The notes under the pieces are model-generated. The model made no database searches. It was not told the DNA's origin and saw only the letters and a list, made by a program, of their open reading frames with translations. A DNA stretch of 33,099 nt from a virus. The stretch is from the UHGV virus genome UHGV-0076257; one strand, given 5' to 3'. Every line of letters starts with the position of its first letter. Position 1 is the stretch's first letter. The position numbers were made by a program, and so were the translations under genes. Of the stretch, positions 25,456-33,099 are shown one piece after another.

Positions 25456-26832
25456 ATGGCTACTTGGCAAGGATCAAATGGCGGATTGTTGGCTGGTATC
25501 GGCGGCGTCAACTCAAACGCTCCGAGCGTAAATGACATCGGCAATACGCTTCAGCTTATCAGGCAGAACAATGATATTGAGCGTTCAGGCGCTAACAATG
25601 TTGGGCTGACTGCTTTGCAAGGCCTTTCAGGTATTGCAGGGGTGTTTCAGCAGGAAAAGCAGGCTCAGCGGCAGAAAGAATTTCAGCAGGCGTACGCTAA
25701 TGCTTATGCGTCTGGTGATCGCGGTGCTTTGCGTCAGTTGGCTACTCAATATCCAGACCAGATTGAATCCGTTCGTAAAGGCATGGGATTCATTGATGAA
25801 GACCAGCGCAATTCTATCGGCACATTAGCGGCTGGCGCACGCCTTGCGTCATCTTCTCCAGAAGCAATGCAATCATGGCTGCAAAATAACGCCAAGGAAC
25901 TGGCGCGCGTCGGTGTTGATCCTAATAACGTTGCTCAGATGTATCAGCAGAATCCATCAGGATTTGGTGAGTTTGTTGATCACCTTGGAATGGCCGCGCT
26001 TGGTCCGATTGATTACTTCAATGTTCAGGACAAGATGGCTGGTCGTGAAATTGACCGAGGCAGGCTGGCAGAGACAATCCGCAGCAATCAGGCTGGCGAG
26101 GCACTTCAGGCGAGAGGGCAAAACCTTTCCTATCAGTCAGCAATGACTGGACACGGACTTGCAGCAGAAAGACTGGCACTTGATAAGCAGAAATTCGGTT
26201 TTGAAGTACAACAGGCACAAAAGAAGGCCGATGAACTTATTAATGCTGCGCCAAAACTATCCGTGAACATGGAAAAGGCTATAGAAAAATCAGCAGGTGA
26301 TGCGGCAGCTAGTCGTAATGCTGCCGATTCAATGACAACGCTTGCTGACACGCTGGAGAAGGAGAAGCCAACTCCTGGTTTGTTCGGTAACGCTGAAAAT
26401 ATGTTCTCTAAGCTTACGGGGCAAGATAACTACCTCCGAGATATGCGGATTAGATTCAACCAACTAGCCAATGCGCAGGCAACCAAGCTTCTCCCTCCCG
26501 GCCCTGCATCAGATAAGGATATTGAGTTTGCAAGGAAAGGCATTCCAAGCGAAACGGATAATCCAATGGTTATGGCTCGATGGTTAAGGGGTATGGCAAA
26601 AATGGAAAGTAATAACGCGAAATTCAACGAGTTTAGGTCAGAGTGGATGAGTGCAAACGGCAGCCCAGGACAATCTGATCGCAACCGAAACATCATGGGG
26701 ATGGATGTTAAGAAGGGTGAATCATTGAACTCTGCGGCAAAACGTTTTCTTTCCTCAAGTTATGGCGATAGCCAACCTCAACAGCAATTGTCCGATGACG
26801 AATTAATTAGCAAATATCTCGGAGGGCAGTAA
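25456..26832 (+). CDS. Ejection protein (P22 gp20 homologue)
   Basis: 458 aa, second ejection-protein position; low-complexity Ala/Gln-rich. Confidence 0.7.
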
Positions 26833-28742
26833 TGGCCTATAGTCGTGAACAGTTGATGACGGCGTTAAGGAATGCTGATGCTGCCGGCGATACTGAGGGA
26901 GCACGTCGCATTGCTCAGATGCTGTCTTCTGGTGATCAATCCACTCAAAACCAATCGCAGCCTGTAGAACAGCAAGATGGATTTATGTCTGACCTCGGCG
27001 AAGCAGTAAAAGAAACTGGTCGCGGACTGGTGCAGGCTGGTGTAAATGTGGCAAATATACCAGCATCAGTTGCCGATGCTGTAACAAGCGCGGCGGCATG
27101 GGCTGGCGGTAAACTCGGTATTGGCGATGGAACATATCAACCAGCGCCACGAGTAACAACTCAGGGATTAGAGCAGGCGTTTGGACTTCAGCAAGGTGCT
27201 CTGACTCCACAAACGACAGAAGGTAGGGTGTTTGCGGAGGCATTGCCTTACCTGGCTACTCTTGGCGTTGGCGGCGCTTCAACTCAGGCGCCAACACTTG
27301 CTGGTAGGGTTACTCAAGGTGCAACTCGTCTTCTCGCCGAAAATGCAGTCGGATCACTTGCCGCAAACAGTGAGAAAAATGATGCGGGAAAACTGGCAAC
27401 AGATATAGGTATTGGCATGCTAACAGGTGGTGCTGTTAATACTGTTGCAAAAGGGATTGGGCGTGGAATAACAGCCTTCAAAGGCGATATCGCACCAGAA
27501 GTAGCGAAAAAAATTGCCACCTCAGAATCAATGGGCGTGATACCAATGACATCTGATGTTATCCCGCCGAAAAATGCTTTCACTCGTGGTCTTACTCAGG
27601 ATGCTGAGGGGGCTTTGCTCGGGACAGGTTCAAAGCGTGCGGAGCAATATGCAAAAAGAAGTCAGCTAGTTAAAAAACAGCTTGAGAAATATGGTGAATA
27701 TAGCCCATCAGTTGTTGTTGACGATCTGTATGGTTCTCTGAAGTCAAGGAAGGATTCAGCCGGAAGCGTTATTGAAGACATTACAACTAAAATGGGAGAT
27801 ACACCTGTTGACACATCAAAATCCATTAAGGTTATCGACAACGTGCTTACCAGGGCTAACAGGCTTGGGAAAGTGGCAAATAAGGATTTGATTAGCGGGC
27901 TATCCGATTTGCGAGAAGAACTTGCTAAACCAGATGTAGATTTTGGACTATTGAGAGAGTTGCGGTCAGCATTAAGGGAAAGTATTCAGGGAGATGCCAT
28001 GGTTTTTCCTAATAGCGCGAAAGCCGCAACTGATGCTGTGGAGAGGGCAATGGGTTCAGATTTGAGGAATAACGCAGCACGGTATTTGGGGGCTGGAGAG
28101 GCTGCCAGATACGTCAAAGCAAACTCTGACTACTCCAACGTCTTCAATAAGGTTCTCAATAAAAGGATTGCGAACAATCTCAACAAAGCTAAAAAAGAGT
28201 TTACTCCAGAGCTAATAGACAGCGTTGTATTCAGCAGAAAACCATCAGATATTAAGAGGATATGGCCTGCTCTTAGTGAAGATGGAAAGAACGCTATGCG
28301 TGCTGCTTATATTAGCAAGATTGCAGAAAAGGCAGGAGACTCGCCAACAAAATTTCTTACCGAGTTAAATAAGTTGAAGTCGCAATCTGACGGTCAGATC
28401 TATAACACGATATTCAGTGGGAGACACATGAAAGAGCTTGATGCTCTTCATGAAGTTCTACAGCAAACAGCAAGGTCAGACGCCGCAAATGTAGTAACAC
28501 AGACAGGACAATCGCAAGCTAACAGGATTAGAACGATTGGCGCAACTGCGACTCTTGGGGCAACACTGGCGCTTGAAGCAGGTTTCGGTGCAATCATGCG
28601 CTTGTACGAGTCCAAAGCAGCAAGGAATACGCTCTTACGTCTGGCAAACACTAAAGCTGGAACGCCAGCCTATGAAAGAGCGTTAAGTAACGCTGCAAAT
28701 GCCGTCAGGCCGCTGTTTGCTACTGAGGCAACACAGCAGTAA
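26832..28742 (+). CDS. Ejection protein (P22 gp16 homologue)
   Basis: 636 aa, third ejection-protein position, overlapping stop/start with the preceding gene. Confidence 0.72.
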
Positions 28743-28766
28743 CGTATGGGAAATTGGATTCAATCG

Positions 28767-29156
28767 CTAACATTTTCTTTTTACTTTTCCAACAAAAGCT
28801 TTGGTTGAATCCATATTTCCATAACCGGAAATGGTTTTTGACATTAAAACTGTTCCAGTAGGATGTATTACCCATGAGTCGATAACGCGTTGAGTTTCGC
28901 CATTCGCGCCGATTCCTATGATGGAGTTTTTAGACAATGCTTTGTAAGCCATGCCGCCCGCATCTGTCCCAGAATATGTGATGCTGGCATCTTCACCGCT
29001 TGTCTTAATGATGAATGTTCCACTAAAACCATCTTCTTCCGGATGGAAATTATTTCGTTCTGAATAGCTTATTCCGCGCATATCTCCAACGACCCAGCAC
29101 TCTGCTGTAGCCCCAAAAGATATGAATAAGAACATAGCAGCAAGAAATTGCTTCAC
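28767..29156 (-). CDS. Secreted protein with N-terminal signal peptide (129 aa), probable moron
   Basis: Track ORF 28767..29372 trimmed to the GTG at 29156, which lies 3 nt after AAGGAGG; MKQFLAAMFLFISFGATA-EC... is a Sec-type signal peptide; Gly/Ser/Thr-rich mature part. Confidence 0.5.
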   Translation of the reverse strand: MKQFLAAMFLFISFGATAECWVVGDMRGISYSERNNFHPEEDGFSGTFIIKTSGEDASITYSGTDAGGMAYKALSKNSIIGIGANGETQRVIDSWVIHPTGTVLMSKTISGYGNMDSTKAFVGKVKRKC

Positions 29157-29186
29157 ACCAACCTCCTTAGTTTTGCGCAGGATACC

Positions 29187-29552
29187 ATGAAAAAAGTTAA
29201 CATTGGAAACGTACCAAAGATGCTCGTTCCGCTCTTTGAGAGCGGTACAATTGTGTTTTGTAGAGACTTTCCAGAATGGCAACGCCTGCATCAAAAACTT
29301 GGTGTGGACGTGCAGGACTCGGATGCCAACGGAGCGTCTCATACAATGAGCAGCGAGAATGGTGTTTTGCATGTGATAGGCGTGTTCAATGGCAAACTAT
29401 CTACTATTGCCCATGAGTGCGCTCACATGGCATTCGATATCTGCTCAAGGGTAGGTGTTGATGTTGAACCAGGAAGAGCCAACGAGACTTACTGCTACTT
29501 AATGAGCAGGCTTGTTGAGTTCTGCGAGCGACATATCAAAAAGCCGGAGTGA
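29187..29552 (+). CDS. Small HExxH-motif protein (putative zincin-like), 121 aa
   Basis: Track ORF 29148..29552 trimmed to the ATG at 29187, which follows AGGA; contains TIAHECAHMAFD (HExxH). No family confidently recognised. Confidence 0.45.
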   Translation: MKKVNIGNVPKMLVPLFESGTIVFCRDFPEWQRLHQKLGVDVQDSDANGASHTMSSENGVLHVIGVFNGKLSTIAHECAHMAFDICSRVGVDVEPGRANETYCYLMSRLVEFCERHIKKPE

Positions 29553-29564
29553 CCGGCTTGATTA

Positions 29565-29744
29565 TTACTTTTTGCTGTCTGGAGTTCGCTTATCCAATAC
29601 CCAGCCATGACCTGGCTTTGTTGTTGGCGGAAGCCTTTCGTTGTCCTTGACGGTGGCAAAATTGTCTTTCTTACCGCCGCGTGGGCCAACTTCTTGGTAT
29701 ATTCCGCCGTTTTTTCCTGTGTTTTCACCTGGTTTTTTCGCCAT
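29565..29744 (-). CDS. Hypothetical small basic protein (59 aa)
   Basis: Track ORF 29565..29759 trimmed to the Met at 29744, which follows GAGGT; MAKKPGENTGKNGGIYQEVGPRGGKKDNF..., Gly/Lys/Pro-rich. Confidence 0.4.
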   Translation of the reverse strand: MAKKPGENTGKNGGIYQEVGPRGGKKDNFATVKDNERLPPTTKPGHGWVLDKRTPDSKK

Positions 29745-29833
29745 GATATACCTCAACATACACCCGTTATTGGGCGATTAAATATTGATCTCATTTTATG
29801 AGTAGTCAATATGGTCCAAAAAAGGCAAAAATT

Positions 29834-29856
29834 AACCCACCGTCAGGTGGGTTTTT
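29834..29856. terminator. Bidirectional terminator-like hairpin at the 3' end of the mnt-like gene
   Basis: AACCCACC-GTCA-GGTGGGTT flanked by an A-run on one side and TTTTTTG on the other; overlaps the last codons of the minus-strand RHH gene. Confidence 0.5.
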
Positions 29857-30217
29857 TGTTGTCATCACCAAGATATTTCTGCTTATATTCCTCTGAAAGA
29901 GGAATTGATCTTTCAACCATGCTAATAAGTTTATCTACTTGTTTTTTCTGTTTTTCTATGATTTCTAAAAGTTGAGGTATAAGTTTTTCATGCTCGATTT
30001 TATCATATTTTCTGTTTATCGCATCTAGTTGTTCTTTAAACTGCTGAACGATAGGACCATCCTCCGGCCCAAAATCACGACAAACACGAATCGCCAACTC
30101 AAGCAGAGTGACAATCTCAGCATTCATAGAACGATTATTTTGTTTTGATGACGCTTCAATTATTTTTTTTAATTCAACAGGAAGCCTAATCCGAAGTTGA
30201 GGGTCTTCTCTACTCAT
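29843..30217 (-). CDS. Ribbon-helix-helix repressor, Mnt/Arc family, with C-terminal extension (124 aa)
   Basis: N-terminal LRIRLPVELKKIIEASSKQNNRSMNAEIVTLLE fits the RHH beta-strand plus helix pattern (compare P22 Mnt ...NGRSMNSELL...); divergent from the arc/ant operon. Confidence 0.65.
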   Translation of the reverse strand: MSREDPQLRIRLPVELKKIIEASSKQNNRSMNAEIVTLLELAIRVCRDFGPEDGPIVQQFKEQLDAINRKYDKIEHEKLIPQLLEIIEKQKKQVDKLISMVERSIPLSEEYKQKYLGDDNKKPT

Positions 30218-30260
30218 ACCATTAGTCCAAACAGGAAAAATTCACAATAAGTAAATTATG

Positions 30261-30323
30261 CCCCACGGTGGGGTTGACTTCAATGACGCACGGTGTGACA
30301 ATTTCAATTGCCCCACAGTGGGG
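30261..30323 (+). promoter_or_regulatory. Pant-like promoter flanked by two palindromic operators
   Basis: CCCCACGGTGGGG at 30261-30273 and CCCCACAGTGGGG at 30311-30323 bracket -35 TTGACT (30274-30279) and -10 GACAAT (30297-30302) with a 17-bp spacer that itself contains CACGGTG. Confidence 0.6.
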
Positions 30324-30340
30324 CTATTTAAGGAGTGGAG

Positions 30341-30508
30341 ATGGAAAAAGCAAAAGACATGTATCAACGCAAGGTTCGTTTCCCAGAGGATGTAAGGAAG
30401 GCGATTGAAAGAAATGGAGAAAAAGAGTGTCGACAGTTCAACACGGAACTTATTTATCAATTGAGAAAAGTGTACGGACTGATTGGAGAGAAGAATGCTA
30501 GGACATAA
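30341..30508 (+). CDS. arc: Arc-like RHH repressor (55 aa)
   Basis: Hand translation MEKAKDMYQRKVRFPEDVRKAIERNGEKECRQFNTELIYQLRKVYGLIGEKNART; GGAG ribosome-binding site; first gene of the ant operon. Below the ORF-track cutoff. Confidence 0.55.
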   Translation: MEKAKDMYQRKVRFPEDVRKAIERNGEKECRQFNTELIYQLRKVYGLIGEKNART

Positions 30509-30581
30509 AAATAGTGAAGCCCGGCAGTGCGCGAACACAAACCGGGCCTCTATGTCAGTAACCGTATGCAAGGAAACTAAC

Positions 30582-31208
30582 ATGAATATTGTAGCAAAAT
30601 CAGATTACAACTTCCACGGAGTTGAGTTGGTGCCCACCCGTGATATGCATGGTGTTTGGTTTACATCATCTAATATTGCATCTGCACTTAAATACGCAAA
30701 TAGTCGTGCAGTAACAATGATTTATAACAAGTATAGCGATGAGTTTAGCGCCGGAATGACTCAGGTACTCGAAGTGAGTACCTCAGGAAATTATCGCAAA
30801 AAAGTGCGAGTTTTCTCACTACGCGGTGCCCACCTAATCGCGATGTTTGCTCGCACTCCGGTAGCCAAAGAGTTCCGCCGCTGGGTGCTGGATATTTTGG
30901 ATCGGCAGGCAGAATGCTCACCGATTGCAAAACAGTTTACTGACGAAGAACTGGTTAATCTCTGCTACTTACAATTGTGGATGGAGAAGAGTCAACAAAT
31001 GTGCAAACACATCTACCCAGGAATGAAGCAAATTTGTTCTGAGCTTTCAGGAAGGATTTACGATATCGCATATGAGACTCGCTATATGTCAGAAGAAACC
31101 AAGAAATCACTTCTTCGTGAAATGAAGAATCTTGATACCAACAATTTTGTCGTAAAGAACGCTCAGCCAATGCTGGCAAAACTGCGCGGCGAGGAATGGA
31201 TTCATTGA
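30582..31208 (+). CDS. ant: Antirepressor, Bro-N/AntA-type N-terminal domain
   Basis: Track ORF 30483..31208 trimmed to the ATG at 30582, which follows AGGAAA; the RVFSLRGAHLIAMFARTPVAKEFRRWVLDIL segment fits the Bro-N pattern. Confidence 0.72.
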   Translation: MNIVAKSDYNFHGVELVPTRDMHGVWFTSSNIASALKYANSRAVTMIYNKYSDEFSAGMTQVLEVSTSGNYRKKVRVFSLRGAHLIAMFARTPVAKEFRRWVLDILDRQAECSPIAKQFTDEELVNLCYLQLWMEKSQQMCKHIYPGMKQICSELSGRIYDIAYETRYMSEETKKSLLREMKNLDTNNFVVKNAQPMLAKLRGEEWIH

Positions 31209-31296
31209 TTGGTGCGCCGGACGGCGCAAAAAGAAAACCGCCAGTGTGCTGCTGGCGGCCTATGTCACACCCTTACTACCACATAAGGAATGCCTA

Positions 31297-32025
31297 ATGA
31301 CTTTTAAGAATGTAGCAAACATCGGATCCGTTGTCACGGATAAAACCATTGACAGCCAGCGCCTGCTTGAGATGGTAAATCAGGCTCGTAGACAGTGCGG
31401 TGAGCCGGAGGTTCGTAATAACAAATTCATCGAGAAAATTGAAGATGAATTGGATGGAGAGCACTACACAAAAAGTGTAGTGCAAAAAGCGAACAAAACT
31501 TCGATGGTTATCATTGAGATGTCAATCAAGCAAGCATTGCGAGTTGCCGCTCGCGAGTCAAAAGCCGTTCGCCGCTCACTGGTAGACCAACTTGAAAGTA
31601 TGCAAGAAGCGCACATTAAAAGCGGTAAATCAGCGAGTGGACTTGTTGAGTATCGTCAAGCGCGAACATTGAAAATGACGGTTGAAGCTGTTACCAATCT
31701 GTTCGATCTGATGCCAAATCTTGCGCCTGAGGCAAAGCAGACAGCGGCAGCAAGTATAATCAACCCGCTTGTTGGTTTTAATGCAATACCTCTTCCGGCA
31801 ATAGAAGAGCATTACTACTCAGCAGGGGAGGTTGCAGAGCAGCTTGGAGTAACGGCCAACAAGATTGGTCGCATTGCTAACGCAAACAACCTCAAAACTG
31901 AGCAGTACGGGAAGTTCTTCCTGGATAAATCGGCGCATTCCAGCAAACAGGTAGAGGCGTTCCGTTACAATTCTGAAGGCGTTAAAGCACTACAACACCT
32001 GCTACATGGCTCAAATGTGGCGTAA
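31297..32025 (+). CDS. Hypothetical protein in the ant operon (possible antirepressor C-terminal-type module), 242 aa
   Basis: Track ORF 31246..32025 trimmed to the ATG at 31297, which follows AAGGAA; co-oriented with ant and followed by a terminator; family not confidently recognised. Confidence 0.5.
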   Translation: MTFKNVANIGSVVTDKTIDSQRLLEMVNQARRQCGEPEVRNNKFIEKIEDELDGEHYTKSVVQKANKTSMVIIEMSIKQALRVAARESKAVRRSLVDQLESMQEAHIKSGKSASGLVEYRQARTLKMTVEAVTNLFDLMPNLAPEAKQTAAASIINPLVGFNAIPLPAIEEHYYSAGEVAEQLGVTANKIGRIANANNLKTEQYGKFFLDKSAHSSKQVEAFRYNSEGVKALQHLLHGSNVA

Positions 32026-32043
32026 CATTTTATAATGAAAACT

Positions 32044-32068
32044 AAACCCGCTTAATCGCGGGTTTTTT
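32044..32068. terminator. Bidirectional intrinsic terminator between the ant operon and the second RHH gene
   Basis: AAACCCGC-TTAAT-CGCGGGTTT hairpin followed by TTTTCT; overlaps the stop of the minus-strand gene. Confidence 0.55.
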
Positions 32069-32309
32069 CTTTCCTTAGAATTTCAGCCGCAACTTCTTTT
32101 ACTCGTTCCGAGATTAATGAGGCCAGCCTCTCTTCTTCATCACGATACCCGCTTACAGGTGATGGTTTGGAGAGTGATTCTTCCATCGTAGCCACAATTT
32201 CGGAATTGATAGACCTGTTATTCATTTTTGCACGCTGCTTAATCTTAGCGTGCAACTCGTGTGTAAGCCTCAAGTGGAACTGCGCCTCATCGTATTTGCT
32301 GTACATCAT
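32052..32309 (-). CDS. mnt: Mnt-type RHH repressor (85 aa)
   Basis: Track ORF 32052..32705 trimmed to the internal Met (MMYSKYDEAQFHLRLTHELHAKIKQRAKMNNRSINSEIVATMEESLSKPSPVSGYRDEEERLA...), which closely resembles P22 Mnt (...NGRSMNSELLQIVQDALSKPSPVTGYRNDAERLA...). Confidence 0.72.
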   Translation of the reverse strand: MMYSKYDEAQFHLRLTHELHAKIKQRAKMNNRSINSEIVATMEESLSKPSPVSGYRDEEERLASLISERVKEVAAEILRKEKTRD

Positions 32310-32441
32310 CAATGCCTCACCAAATGGGTGGAATGGCATCGTAAAACCTACTGTACAAATCAACAATCGTACCGTTTCGGTATGTAATAAATGCCAACCG
32401 TAGCCATGCTGCGGCGATTCCTTGTATCTGGAGCAAATTAA

Positions 32442-33099
32442 ATGACAGACATTACAGCCAATGTTGTAGTAAGTATGCCTTCGCAACTCTTCACTATGGC
32501 TCGTTCTTTTAAAGCCGTAGCCAATGGCAAAATTTATATCGGTAAAATTGACACTGACCCTGTAAATCCTGAAAACCAGATTCAGGTTTATGTAGAGAAC
32601 GAAGACGGTTCTCACATTCCTGTTTCGCAACCAATAATCATTAACGCTGCTGGATATCCGGTATATAACGGACAGATTGCCAAATTCGTAACCGTGCAAG
32701 GCCATTCTATGGCTGTTTATGATGCGTATGGTACACAGCAGTTCTATTTTCCTAATGTGCTGAAGTATGATCCTGATCAGTTACGGCAGCAATTAGAAGA
32801 CCCAGATGGAGCGAATAAATACCCAAAACTTCAGATAGCAAGATGGAGAGACAGTTATGATGTAAGAGGTTGGGGGGCTATTGGTGATGGTGTTCATGAT
32901 GATACATCAGCTCTATCAGAATTACTTTCTGTTGCAACAGGTGGTGAAAAGATAGATGGGCGAGGGCTTACTTTTAAAGTATCAACTCTTCCAGATGTCA
33001 GTCGATTTAAAAATGCTCGTTTTTTATTTGAGAGAATACCGGGCCAGCCTCTTTTTTATGCTTCTGAAGATTTTATCCAGGGAGAGTTATTTAAAATTA
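32442..33099 (+). CDS. Tailspike protein, 5' partial (P22 gp9-type head-binding domain fused to a different receptor-binding domain)
   Basis: [43 protein letters not shown]... matches the conserved P22-like tailspike N-terminal domain up to ...NVLKYDPDQ; what follows ([15 protein letters not shown]) looks like a pectate-lyase-type beta-helix start. Runs off the window end. Confidence 0.85.

Follow-up and report, generated by a model that had tools for sequence, protein, structure and literature searches.

A composite immI region in a P22-like phage genome: a putative antirepressor cassette beside a second mnt gene

The immI region of phage P22 is a textbook system for DNA recognition by ribbon-helix-helix (RHH) proteins and for antirepressor control of lysogeny. 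It carries a single mnt gene together with arc and ant, as had been assumed at the outset and as the annotated P22 record agrees. How would such a region work when it holds two Mnt-family genes and two genes annotated as antirepressors? This question is raised by the virus genome UHGV-0076257, of which a stretch of 33,099 nt (the window) was analyzed here. The original prediction, made from the letters of the window alone, proposed a rewired circuit in which either repressor could gate ant and in which Ant had been split into two genes. Comparing gene content, homologies, positions, conservation and co-inheritance, we found that the region combines two known kinds of module, module A (29834–32065) and module B (32052–32442), set side by side as a mosaic. 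Its layout is a recombinant variant of the classic P22 immI circuit and not a rewired one. We place a probability of about 0.6 on the composite reading as a whole, in which module A is a mobile cassette for antirepressor control, operating as P22 immI does, and module B is a stand-alone mnt.

The window belongs to a P22-like phage of the HK620/Sf6 type, and about 60% of the bases between 8100 and 33099 match HK620 and related Escherichia coli podoviruses with 95–97% identity. The locus is bounded by a gene 16 homologue (26832–28742) on the left and by the tailspike gene (start at 32443) on the right, as is P22 immI. The name "ant moron" was given to this region by Villafane et al. 2008, who described its rapid flux, with 10 types among 16 genomes (PMC2629481). 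The five genes called originally were all recovered as open reading frames (ORFs) at the coordinates given, and both RHH genes do belong to the Mnt family, the gene for a 124-aa protein (RHH124) occupying the true mnt position. Module A consists of this repressor gene, a three-site control region, an Arc-like gene, a sar-like RNA gene, Ant1, and Ant2 with its own putative antisense RNA. The complete arrangement of the window recurred in one IMG/VR contig (L143) and was absent from the phage collection and from 5426 complete E. coli genomes, in which no place covered at least 80% of the query; the exact combination of modules is rare. General literature searches on immI and antirepressors found no description of the cassette, and a search of the literature with the operator sequence returned matches only in human genome-editing papers.

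Table 1. Positions of genes, promoters, candidate binding sites and RNA features in and next to the two modules (coordinates of the window).
Feature	Position	Strand	Description and basis
PHROG 2651 gene	within 28767–29744	−	Left neighbour
PHROG 1365 gene	within 28767–29744	+	Left neighbour
orf59a-like PHROG 3202 gene	within 28767–29744	−	Left neighbour
Bidirectional terminator-like hairpin	29834–29853		3′ end of the 124-aa gene; in P22-shared sequence, conserved left cassette flank
RHH124	29843–30217	−	124 aa; Pfam Arc E=3e-7, residues 2–40
Putative RHH124 gene promoter	30255–30283	−	TTGAAG, 17-nt spacer, CATAAT; promoter prediction
O2, candidate operator	30261–30273		Upstream palindrome CCCCACgGTGGGG (= CCCCACGGTGGGG); ends 1 nt ahead of Pant −35 hexamer
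Pant-like promoter	30274–30302	+	TTGACT (−35, 30274–79), 17-nt spacer, GACAAT (−10, 30297–302); sigma-70 type, bracketed by palindromes
Middle pseudo-palindrome	30284–30300		TGACGCACgGTGTGACA; Pant spacer and −10; centre 30292, 25 bp from each outer centre
O1, candidate operator	30311–30323		Downstream palindrome CCCCACaGTGGGG (= CCCCACAGTGGGG); about +2 to +14 of Pant
Arc-like RHH protein	30341–30508	+	55 aa, beginning MEKAKDMYQRKVRFP; ORF, RHH homology
sar1, putative sar-like antisense RNA gene for ant1	30505–30596	−	Extended −10 TGCTACAAT at 30596–30588; predicted RNA from ~30581 to ~30505
Ant1	30582–31208	+	208 aa, Bro-N and P22AR_C; Pfam domains; antirepressor homologue
sar2, putative second sar-like antisense RNA gene	31226–31337	−	Faces ant2; promoter prediction, folding, conservation
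Ant2	31297–32025	+	242 aa, PHROG 1726 "anti-repressor"; PHROG match E=7e-101
Bidirectional intrinsic terminator	32044–32065		Common to ant operon and convergent Mnt2 gene; terminator prediction
Mnt2	32052–32309	−	Canonical Mnt homologue, 85 aa; Pfam Arc E=3e-15; RHH and Mnt C-terminal domain
Putative weak Mnt2 promoter	32338–32366	−	TTGTTG, 17-nt spacer, TACGAT; collinear with P22 Pmnt by manual alignment
Candidate Mnt2 operator	32368–32384		CGTACCGtttCGGTATG, 17 bp; at Omnt position of P22 and phage L; only such site in window

The three-site control region and its repressor

Module A resembles P22 immI in its basic plan: one control region serves both the arc-ant operon and an Mnt-type RHH gene divergent from it, and the Arc-like gene comes first in the operon. 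Two 13-bp palindromes had been noticed on either side of the −35 and −10 elements of the Pant-like promoter, and both are present; they are the only two exact copies of CCCCACnGTGGGG in the 33-kb window, where 0.47 matches would be expected by chance even with up to two mismatches allowed. The annotated control region of P22 consists of TTGACA, 17 nt containing Oarc, TATATT, 6 nt, and the Omnt palindrome AGGTCCACGGTGGACCT. The centre of O1 lies 15 nt past the −10 hexamer, which is the same distance as that of P22 Omnt, and the two share the core CCACnGTGG; by position and core, O1 thus appears to be the palindrome that overlaps the Pant start in immI. The palindromes look like operators and were predicted as such. 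They were ruled out as RNA hairpins or terminators, since a stem of 6 bp closed by a loop of 1 nt cannot fold and no run of T follows either palindrome.

The two control regions differ in their number of sites, P22 having one Omnt and one Oarc and the window having two outer operators with a third site at the centre. The middle pseudo-palindrome was invariant in all loci of the family that were examined before the pattern search described below, and it is a candidate Arc-like operator by analogy with P22 Oarc. The repressor promoter is also placed differently: P22 Pmnt overlaps Pant face-on, whereas the putative promoter of the RHH124 gene stands back-to-back with Pant and carries an operator in its spacer, O2 occupying 13 of the 17 spacer bases. 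Its −10 element (AAATTATG on the plus strand) was nearly invariant among the 81 unique promoters of the family. Manual inspection of module A for a P22-style Pmnt fully overlapping Pant revealed no acceptable hexamers, and the back-to-back promoter fits better.

RHH124 combines a Mnt-like head with a tail of its own. The N-terminal RHH domain (residues 2–43, S-R-E-D-P-Q-L-R-I-R-L-P) has the arm and strand of the Mnt type, and residues 3–43 align to the Mnt structure PDB 1MNT (E=0.0016; hhalign probability 97.6%). Arg2 and Arg10 of Mnt are retained, while Gln6 and Arg8 replace His6 and Asn8. According to work attributed to Knight and Sauer, these N-terminal residues reportedly set the specificities of Mnt and Arc. 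The replacements fit a half-site shifted to GCCCCAC from the GGTCCAC of P22. RHH124 and P22 mnt have their last residues (...NKKPT and ...YKKTT) and the 3′ flank in common, and RHH124 is therefore the positional mnt allele, with the recombination joint in its last codons. Positions 29700–29860 of the window are 95–96% identical to P22 and ST160.

The tail of RHH124 (residues ~50–124) was helical in an AlphaFold2 model, with helices at 55–70, 73–104 and 109–115 and a mean pLDDT (predicted local distance difference test) of 70. Beyond residue 43, no match was found by PDB sequence search, by Foldseek against PDB or by hhalign, and the tail is unrelated to the C-terminal tetramerisation domain of Mnt. 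The C-terminal extension does have relatives, the question of which had been raised with the original prediction: full-length homologues of 124–129 aa with 66–98% identity form about 17 clusters, found in E. coli, Salmonella and Citrobacter.

Conservation and spread of the cassette

Is the twin-operator promoter a local invention? Relatives of the regulator that were found by protein similarity had one layout throughout, in which O2 is followed by an invariant ATGACGCACGGTGTGACA and then by O1. When O2 together with the central element was used as an exact search pattern, without O1, matches were obtained in 13 species genomes, including those of Proteus, Xenorhabdus, Yersinia pestis, Pantoea, Kluyvera and Raoultella, and in 104 IMG/VR contigs. 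In the resulting set of 131 loci with 81 unique promoters, O1 was present with at most two mismatches in nearly all loci, 49–52 bp from O2, and its flanks were poorly conserved. All 131 loci encoded a repressor head of the form MSREDPQ[LF]R[IV]RLP and an Arc of the form M[EQ]KAKDMYQ[RK]K[VI]R[FI]P, and the repressors fell into length classes of 86–95, 116–126 and 142–153 aa. On these comparisons, the twin-operator promoter is the usual, conserved design throughout a widespread family of cassettes and not the local rewiring first suspected.

Across loci L008 to L143, the C-terminal domain was exchanged while neither the Mnt-like head MSREDPQLRIRLP nor the three-site promoter changed. The converse was found in Citrobacter P0018, where a tail of the 124-aa type is joined to another head and accompanied by another Arc and by a promoter lacking all three elements (no CCCCAC sites). 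Because the head and promoter remain constant while the tails vary, and because P0018 presents the converse, it is the head and the Arc that carry the operators along, and the tail does not. Two natural chimeras (L014 and L023) were considered as a means of separating the Arc sites from the Mnt sites and were uninformative, since head, Arc and promoter had all changed together.

The regulator also turned up in quite different surroundings. Its 641-bp core (29860–30500) was present at 99% identity in only two of the 5426 complete E. coli genomes, and in both it was located between the lambda-type tail genes L and K, followed by an Ant of the P22AR_N type. Other members of the cassette family lay among the tail genes of further prophages resembling siphoviruses or myoviruses. 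By sequence comparison, the cassette is best described as mobile, behaving as a moron that passes from one virion module to another, unrelated one. Lambda-type tail clusters holding the regulator cassette included those of E. coli CFSAN018748 (L005, 3484–5142, between L and K) and Y. pestis (L019). The cassettes of CFSAN018748, Y. pestis and phage TL-2011b have the same RHH head, Arc and O2-centre-O1 promoter as the window, and downstream come a sar-like element and a gene for an antirepressor. They differ from the window in lying within siphovirus- or myovirus-type tail clusters, in having mostly other C-terminal tails (142–153 aa class) and other Ant types (P22AR_N or long Bro-N), and in that none has Mnt2.

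In TL-2011b (L006, NC_019445; 3500–3620), the RHH gene reads MSREDPQLRDQTSR and then a stop, and the annotated coding sequence restarts at an internal MNAEIV, which indicates a frameshift or an error of sequencing or annotation. Its upstream operator is degenerate (CCTCACcGTGTGC), which is why TL-2011b falls outside the set of 131 loci defined by the exact pattern.

The boundaries of regulator exchange were sharp when the window was compared with the P22-like prophages of E. coli 55989 and MS10495 and with phage JEP4. With these, the window shares its right half (sar1, Ant1, Ant2, Mnt2 and the head-binding domain of the tailspike) at 94–99% DNA identity, and the 55989/MS10495 prophages likewise have three Arc-family genes. 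In contrast, the 55989/MS10495 prophages carry a 106-aa RHH protein and a 57-aa Arc with unrelated operators, and JEP4 carries a C2-type repressor. In the alternative mnt/arc allele of MS10495 (L002, 1990–2060), symmetric ACCAACTTG and CAAGTTGGT bracket Pant and a GGTTCTAGAACC palindrome lies at the start site; judged from this allele, flanking operators may be a recurrent design.

For the working of module A, we infer the assignment of proteins to sites, the oligomeric state of the repressor, the activity of the promoters and the existence of the RNAs, largely by analogy with P22. In the prophage, RHH124 would bind both CCCCACnGTGGGG palindromes through its Mnt-like beta-strand (Arg2, Gln6, Arg8, Arg10), and its helical tail would probably provide oligomerisation. 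Occupancy of O1 would block Pant as Omnt does in P22. O2 would act as a second lock on Pant and as the site of negative autoregulation, because it abuts the Pant −35 hexamer and sits in the spacer of the repressor's own divergent promoter. After infection, Pant would express the Arc-like protein, which would probably bind the central pseudo-palindrome and shut Pant down, and two putative cis-encoded sar-like RNAs would damp the translation of Ant1 and Ant2.

The sites could also be used the other way around, with the Arc-like protein (or both proteins) on the CCCCAC palindromes and RHH124 on the centre, so that one cooperative three-site array is read by two RHH proteins of similar specificity. 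The Arc-like strand Y-Q-R-K-V-R-F-P does resemble the RHH124 strand P-Q-L-R-I-R-L-P, the outer sites recur in variant form in the central element (GCACgGTGT), the three centres of the window are 25 bp apart with a middle-to-O1 distance of 24–26 bp in other loci, and Arc, RHH head and promoter are always inherited together. We nevertheless regard this arrangement as unlikely: O1 lies exactly at the position of P22 Omnt and has its CCACnGTGG core, the R-[DE]-D-P arm and the Arg10 of P22 and L Mnt are found in RHH124 and not in Arc, and the Arc operator of P22 lies in the Pant spacer, where the central element of the window lies. The assignment of RHH124 to O1 and O2 and of the Arc-like protein to the centre is thus the one preferred here by analogy with P22.

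The stand-alone mnt module

The second Mnt-family protein, Mnt2, is the more canonical one. Its residues 7–78 align to residues 3–74 of 1MNT (E=9e-16), which amounts to full-length homology with Mnt. The gene is convergent on the ant operon, and its start lies 133 bp from that of the tailspike gene. The closest relatives among phage mnt genes are those of IME10 and Sf101 (62–64%, with Sf101 at 62%), followed by ST160/SE1 (56%), L/ST64T (51%) and P22 (45%). The immI region of Sf101 and that of L contain no gene other than mnt, which diverges from the tailspike gene. Module B is accordingly similar to the mnt-only ant morons of L/ST64T, Sf101 and IME10 (PMC2629481, PMC8022706), to whose products Mnt2 is 51–64% identical: the gene is transcribed away from the tailspike gene, and the short intergenic region contains a promoter/operator remnant collinear with P22. 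Unlike these morons, the window has a complete and unrelated arc-ant cassette ahead of the lone mnt.

The intergenic region between Mnt2 and the tailspike gene aligns base for base with the control regions of P22 and L (hexamer, 17 nt, hexamer, 6 nt, 17-bp palindrome). Phage L has AAGACCACcGTGGTCTT where the window has CGTACCGtttCGGTATG; the candidate Mnt2 operator is of the type GTACC-N5-GGTAC, and the operators of P22 and L are of the type CCACnGTGG. The TACC...GGTA core of this palindrome is kept in JEP4, MS10495, Sf101 and VSe13, and no further operators of the Mnt2 type or the P22 type were found elsewhere in the window. The putative Mnt2 promoter overlaps a degenerate remnant of a rightward Pant (ATGGCA, 17 nt, CAAATC). 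Mnt2 most likely regulates only itself and any residual rightward transcription into the tailspike gene, and not the ant operon. An imperfect palindrome or hairpin, ATGCC TCACC AAATG GGTGG AAT GGCAT (32314–32339), overlaps the Shine-Dalgarno sequence of Mnt2, and phage L has CACTT...AAGTG within the same TGCC/GGCA arms; this element could be a hairpin of the 5′ untranslated region or a second binding site.

The suggestion that either repressor could gate ant supposed that both Mnt-like proteins act on the twin-operator Pant, as redundant or dual inputs that each keep the antirepressor genes off. Both are Mnt-family RHH proteins sharing Gln6 and Arg10, and both reside in one moron, in an arrangement that recurs identically in L143. 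However, the recognition residues of Mnt2 are Q6/H8/R10, so that it differs from RHH124 at position 8 (His instead of Arg), and it has no Arg2 and no S-R-E-D-P arm. Mnt2 also travels independently of the CCCCAC promoter: it occurs with other Pant/operator alleles (55989/MS10495 and JEP4) and without an arc-ant operon (Sf101 and VSe13), and among the 131 twin-operator loci it was found only in the window and L143. Its gene is convergent with the ant operon, and it has its own collinear palindrome, of which there is no counterpart at Pant. Shared control of Pant by both repressors is therefore very improbable.

A number of observations weigh against the composite reading. The count of predicted promoters (8) was no higher than that expected in shuffled sequence (8.1). 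In module A, the Arc-like protein has a recognition strand (Q-R-K-V-R) similar to that of RHH124, and it is always co-inherited with the promoter, for which reason comparative data cannot separate the Arc sites from the Mnt sites; the variation of the O1-O2 spacing among loci (49–52 bp) argues against strict helical phasing for looping. In module B, the palindrome of Mnt2 falls short of full symmetry (6 of 7 pairs), the spacing at its centre is unlike that of Omnt, only its core is kept in Sf101 and VSe13, and the rightward −10 beside it is poor. In the transcriptome of Kapi1 lysogens, mnt was unexpressed (PMC12922286), the homology of that gene to Mnt2 not being established.

The observations on module B bear on a further possibility, namely that Mnt2 with its control region has no function and survives from an older immI as a relic, left behind after replacement of arc-ant, module A being the only active part. 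For the lone mnt of phage L, this option was raised in the genome paper (PMC8022706), and the degenerate rightward promoter remnant and the silent Kapi1 gene would be in keeping with it. On the other side, the Mnt2 ORF is intact, and the gene with its intergenic region and palindrome is kept in 64 of the 5426 complete E. coli genomes. The protein is 95–100% identical between E. coli and Salmonella phages, compared with ~87% for the gene and intergenic DNA. Because of this difference between protein and DNA identity and the presence in 64 genomes, we argue for a retained function, and we hold the relic explanation to be rather doubtful, a stand-alone Mnt2 acting at its own control region being preferred.

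Antirepressor genes, antisense RNAs and implications

The idea that Ant had been split between two genes did not hold. Ant1 has the two-domain plan of P22 Ant with Bro-N in place of P22AR_N, so that the P22AR_C domain is shared with P22 and the P22AR_N plus P22AR_C architecture is not; when compared with P22 Ant, its C-domain alone aligned (29% identity). Ant1 is best regarded, from its domains, as an intact, domain-swapped antirepressor homologue. For Ant2, no similarity to P22 Ant was found, and searches of Pfam (E≤10) and NCBIfam returned nothing meaningful. Homologues of Ant2 came after a first ant gene in 47 of the collected loci, which points to Ant2 as a regular second gene of such cassettes. 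The window thus departs from the single mnt and single ant of P22 immI and adds Ant2, another putative antisense RNA and one more mnt.

Between ant2 and Mnt2, a 73-aa ORF was observed in JEP4 and in the 55989-type prophages (loci L001, 4529–4750, and L002, 3766–3987), which the window does not have (32025–32052). To the left of the region (28767–29744) lie three small conserved moron genes of unknown function that are common to 55989-type prophages (Table 1).

The predicted sar1 RNA covers the start codon region of ant1 and folds into the same two-hairpin shape as the annotated P22 sar (z=−5.4, compared with −4.0 for P22), with its extended −10 positioned like that of P22 Psar. In silico, it has the features of a cis-antisense sar RNA over the ant start, a further likeness to P22 immI. 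Conservation was inspected in 45 of the 78 unique arc-ant intergenic sequences, and the −10 element was present in most of these, independent of the type of Ant that follows, with terminator stems that varied.

P22 has one sar only, whereas the window has a second putative one. The predicted sar2 promoter consists of a −35 GTGACA (31337–31332), a 17-nt spacer and an extended −10 TGcTACATT (31317–31309). The predicted RNA would run from ~31302 to ~31226, covering the ATG and the Shine-Dalgarno sequence of ant2, and its terminator stem (31261–31235) is followed by a run of T. Across 19–20 unique loci, in which Ant2 identity went down to 40%, the promoter hexamers were kept and the terminator stem showed three compensatory pairs. 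In an Rfam scan of positions 28000–33099 (E≤1), neither RNA was covered by a family and no match to a sar family appeared. All matches were at chance level, RyhB and isrK falling on the terminator and SymR on the sar1 region.

A bolder proposal, which we consider improbable taken as a whole, is that the fixed Mnt-like head and three-site promoter mark a distinct and widespread immI lineage of the Enterobacterales. Its interchangeable tails, in at least three length classes, would be modules of oligomerisation or signal sensing, each antirepressor gene would have its own sar-type RNA, and the window would be the first case in which such a cassette is stacked on an independent Mnt module controlling transcription into the tailspike gene. 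If this were true, the cues to which antirepressor release is coupled would differ between prophages according to the tails of their repressors.

The window offers a natural variant of immI, with a Mnt head of apparently shifted specificity, two putative operators bracketing the promoter and a different, probably oligomerising, tail. Two leads stand out as the most useful: a conserved promoter with three sites whose repressors have swappable tails, and a putative second RNA of the sar type, which would extend the sar paradigm to an operon with two antirepressors. For annotation, genes labeled "Arc family DNA-binding protein" in such morons belong to separable modules, and a second mnt should not be assumed to be the controller of ant. 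The conservation of the cassette across many genera provides natural combinations of heads, tails and operators in which the evolution of RHH specificity and cooperativity may be studied.

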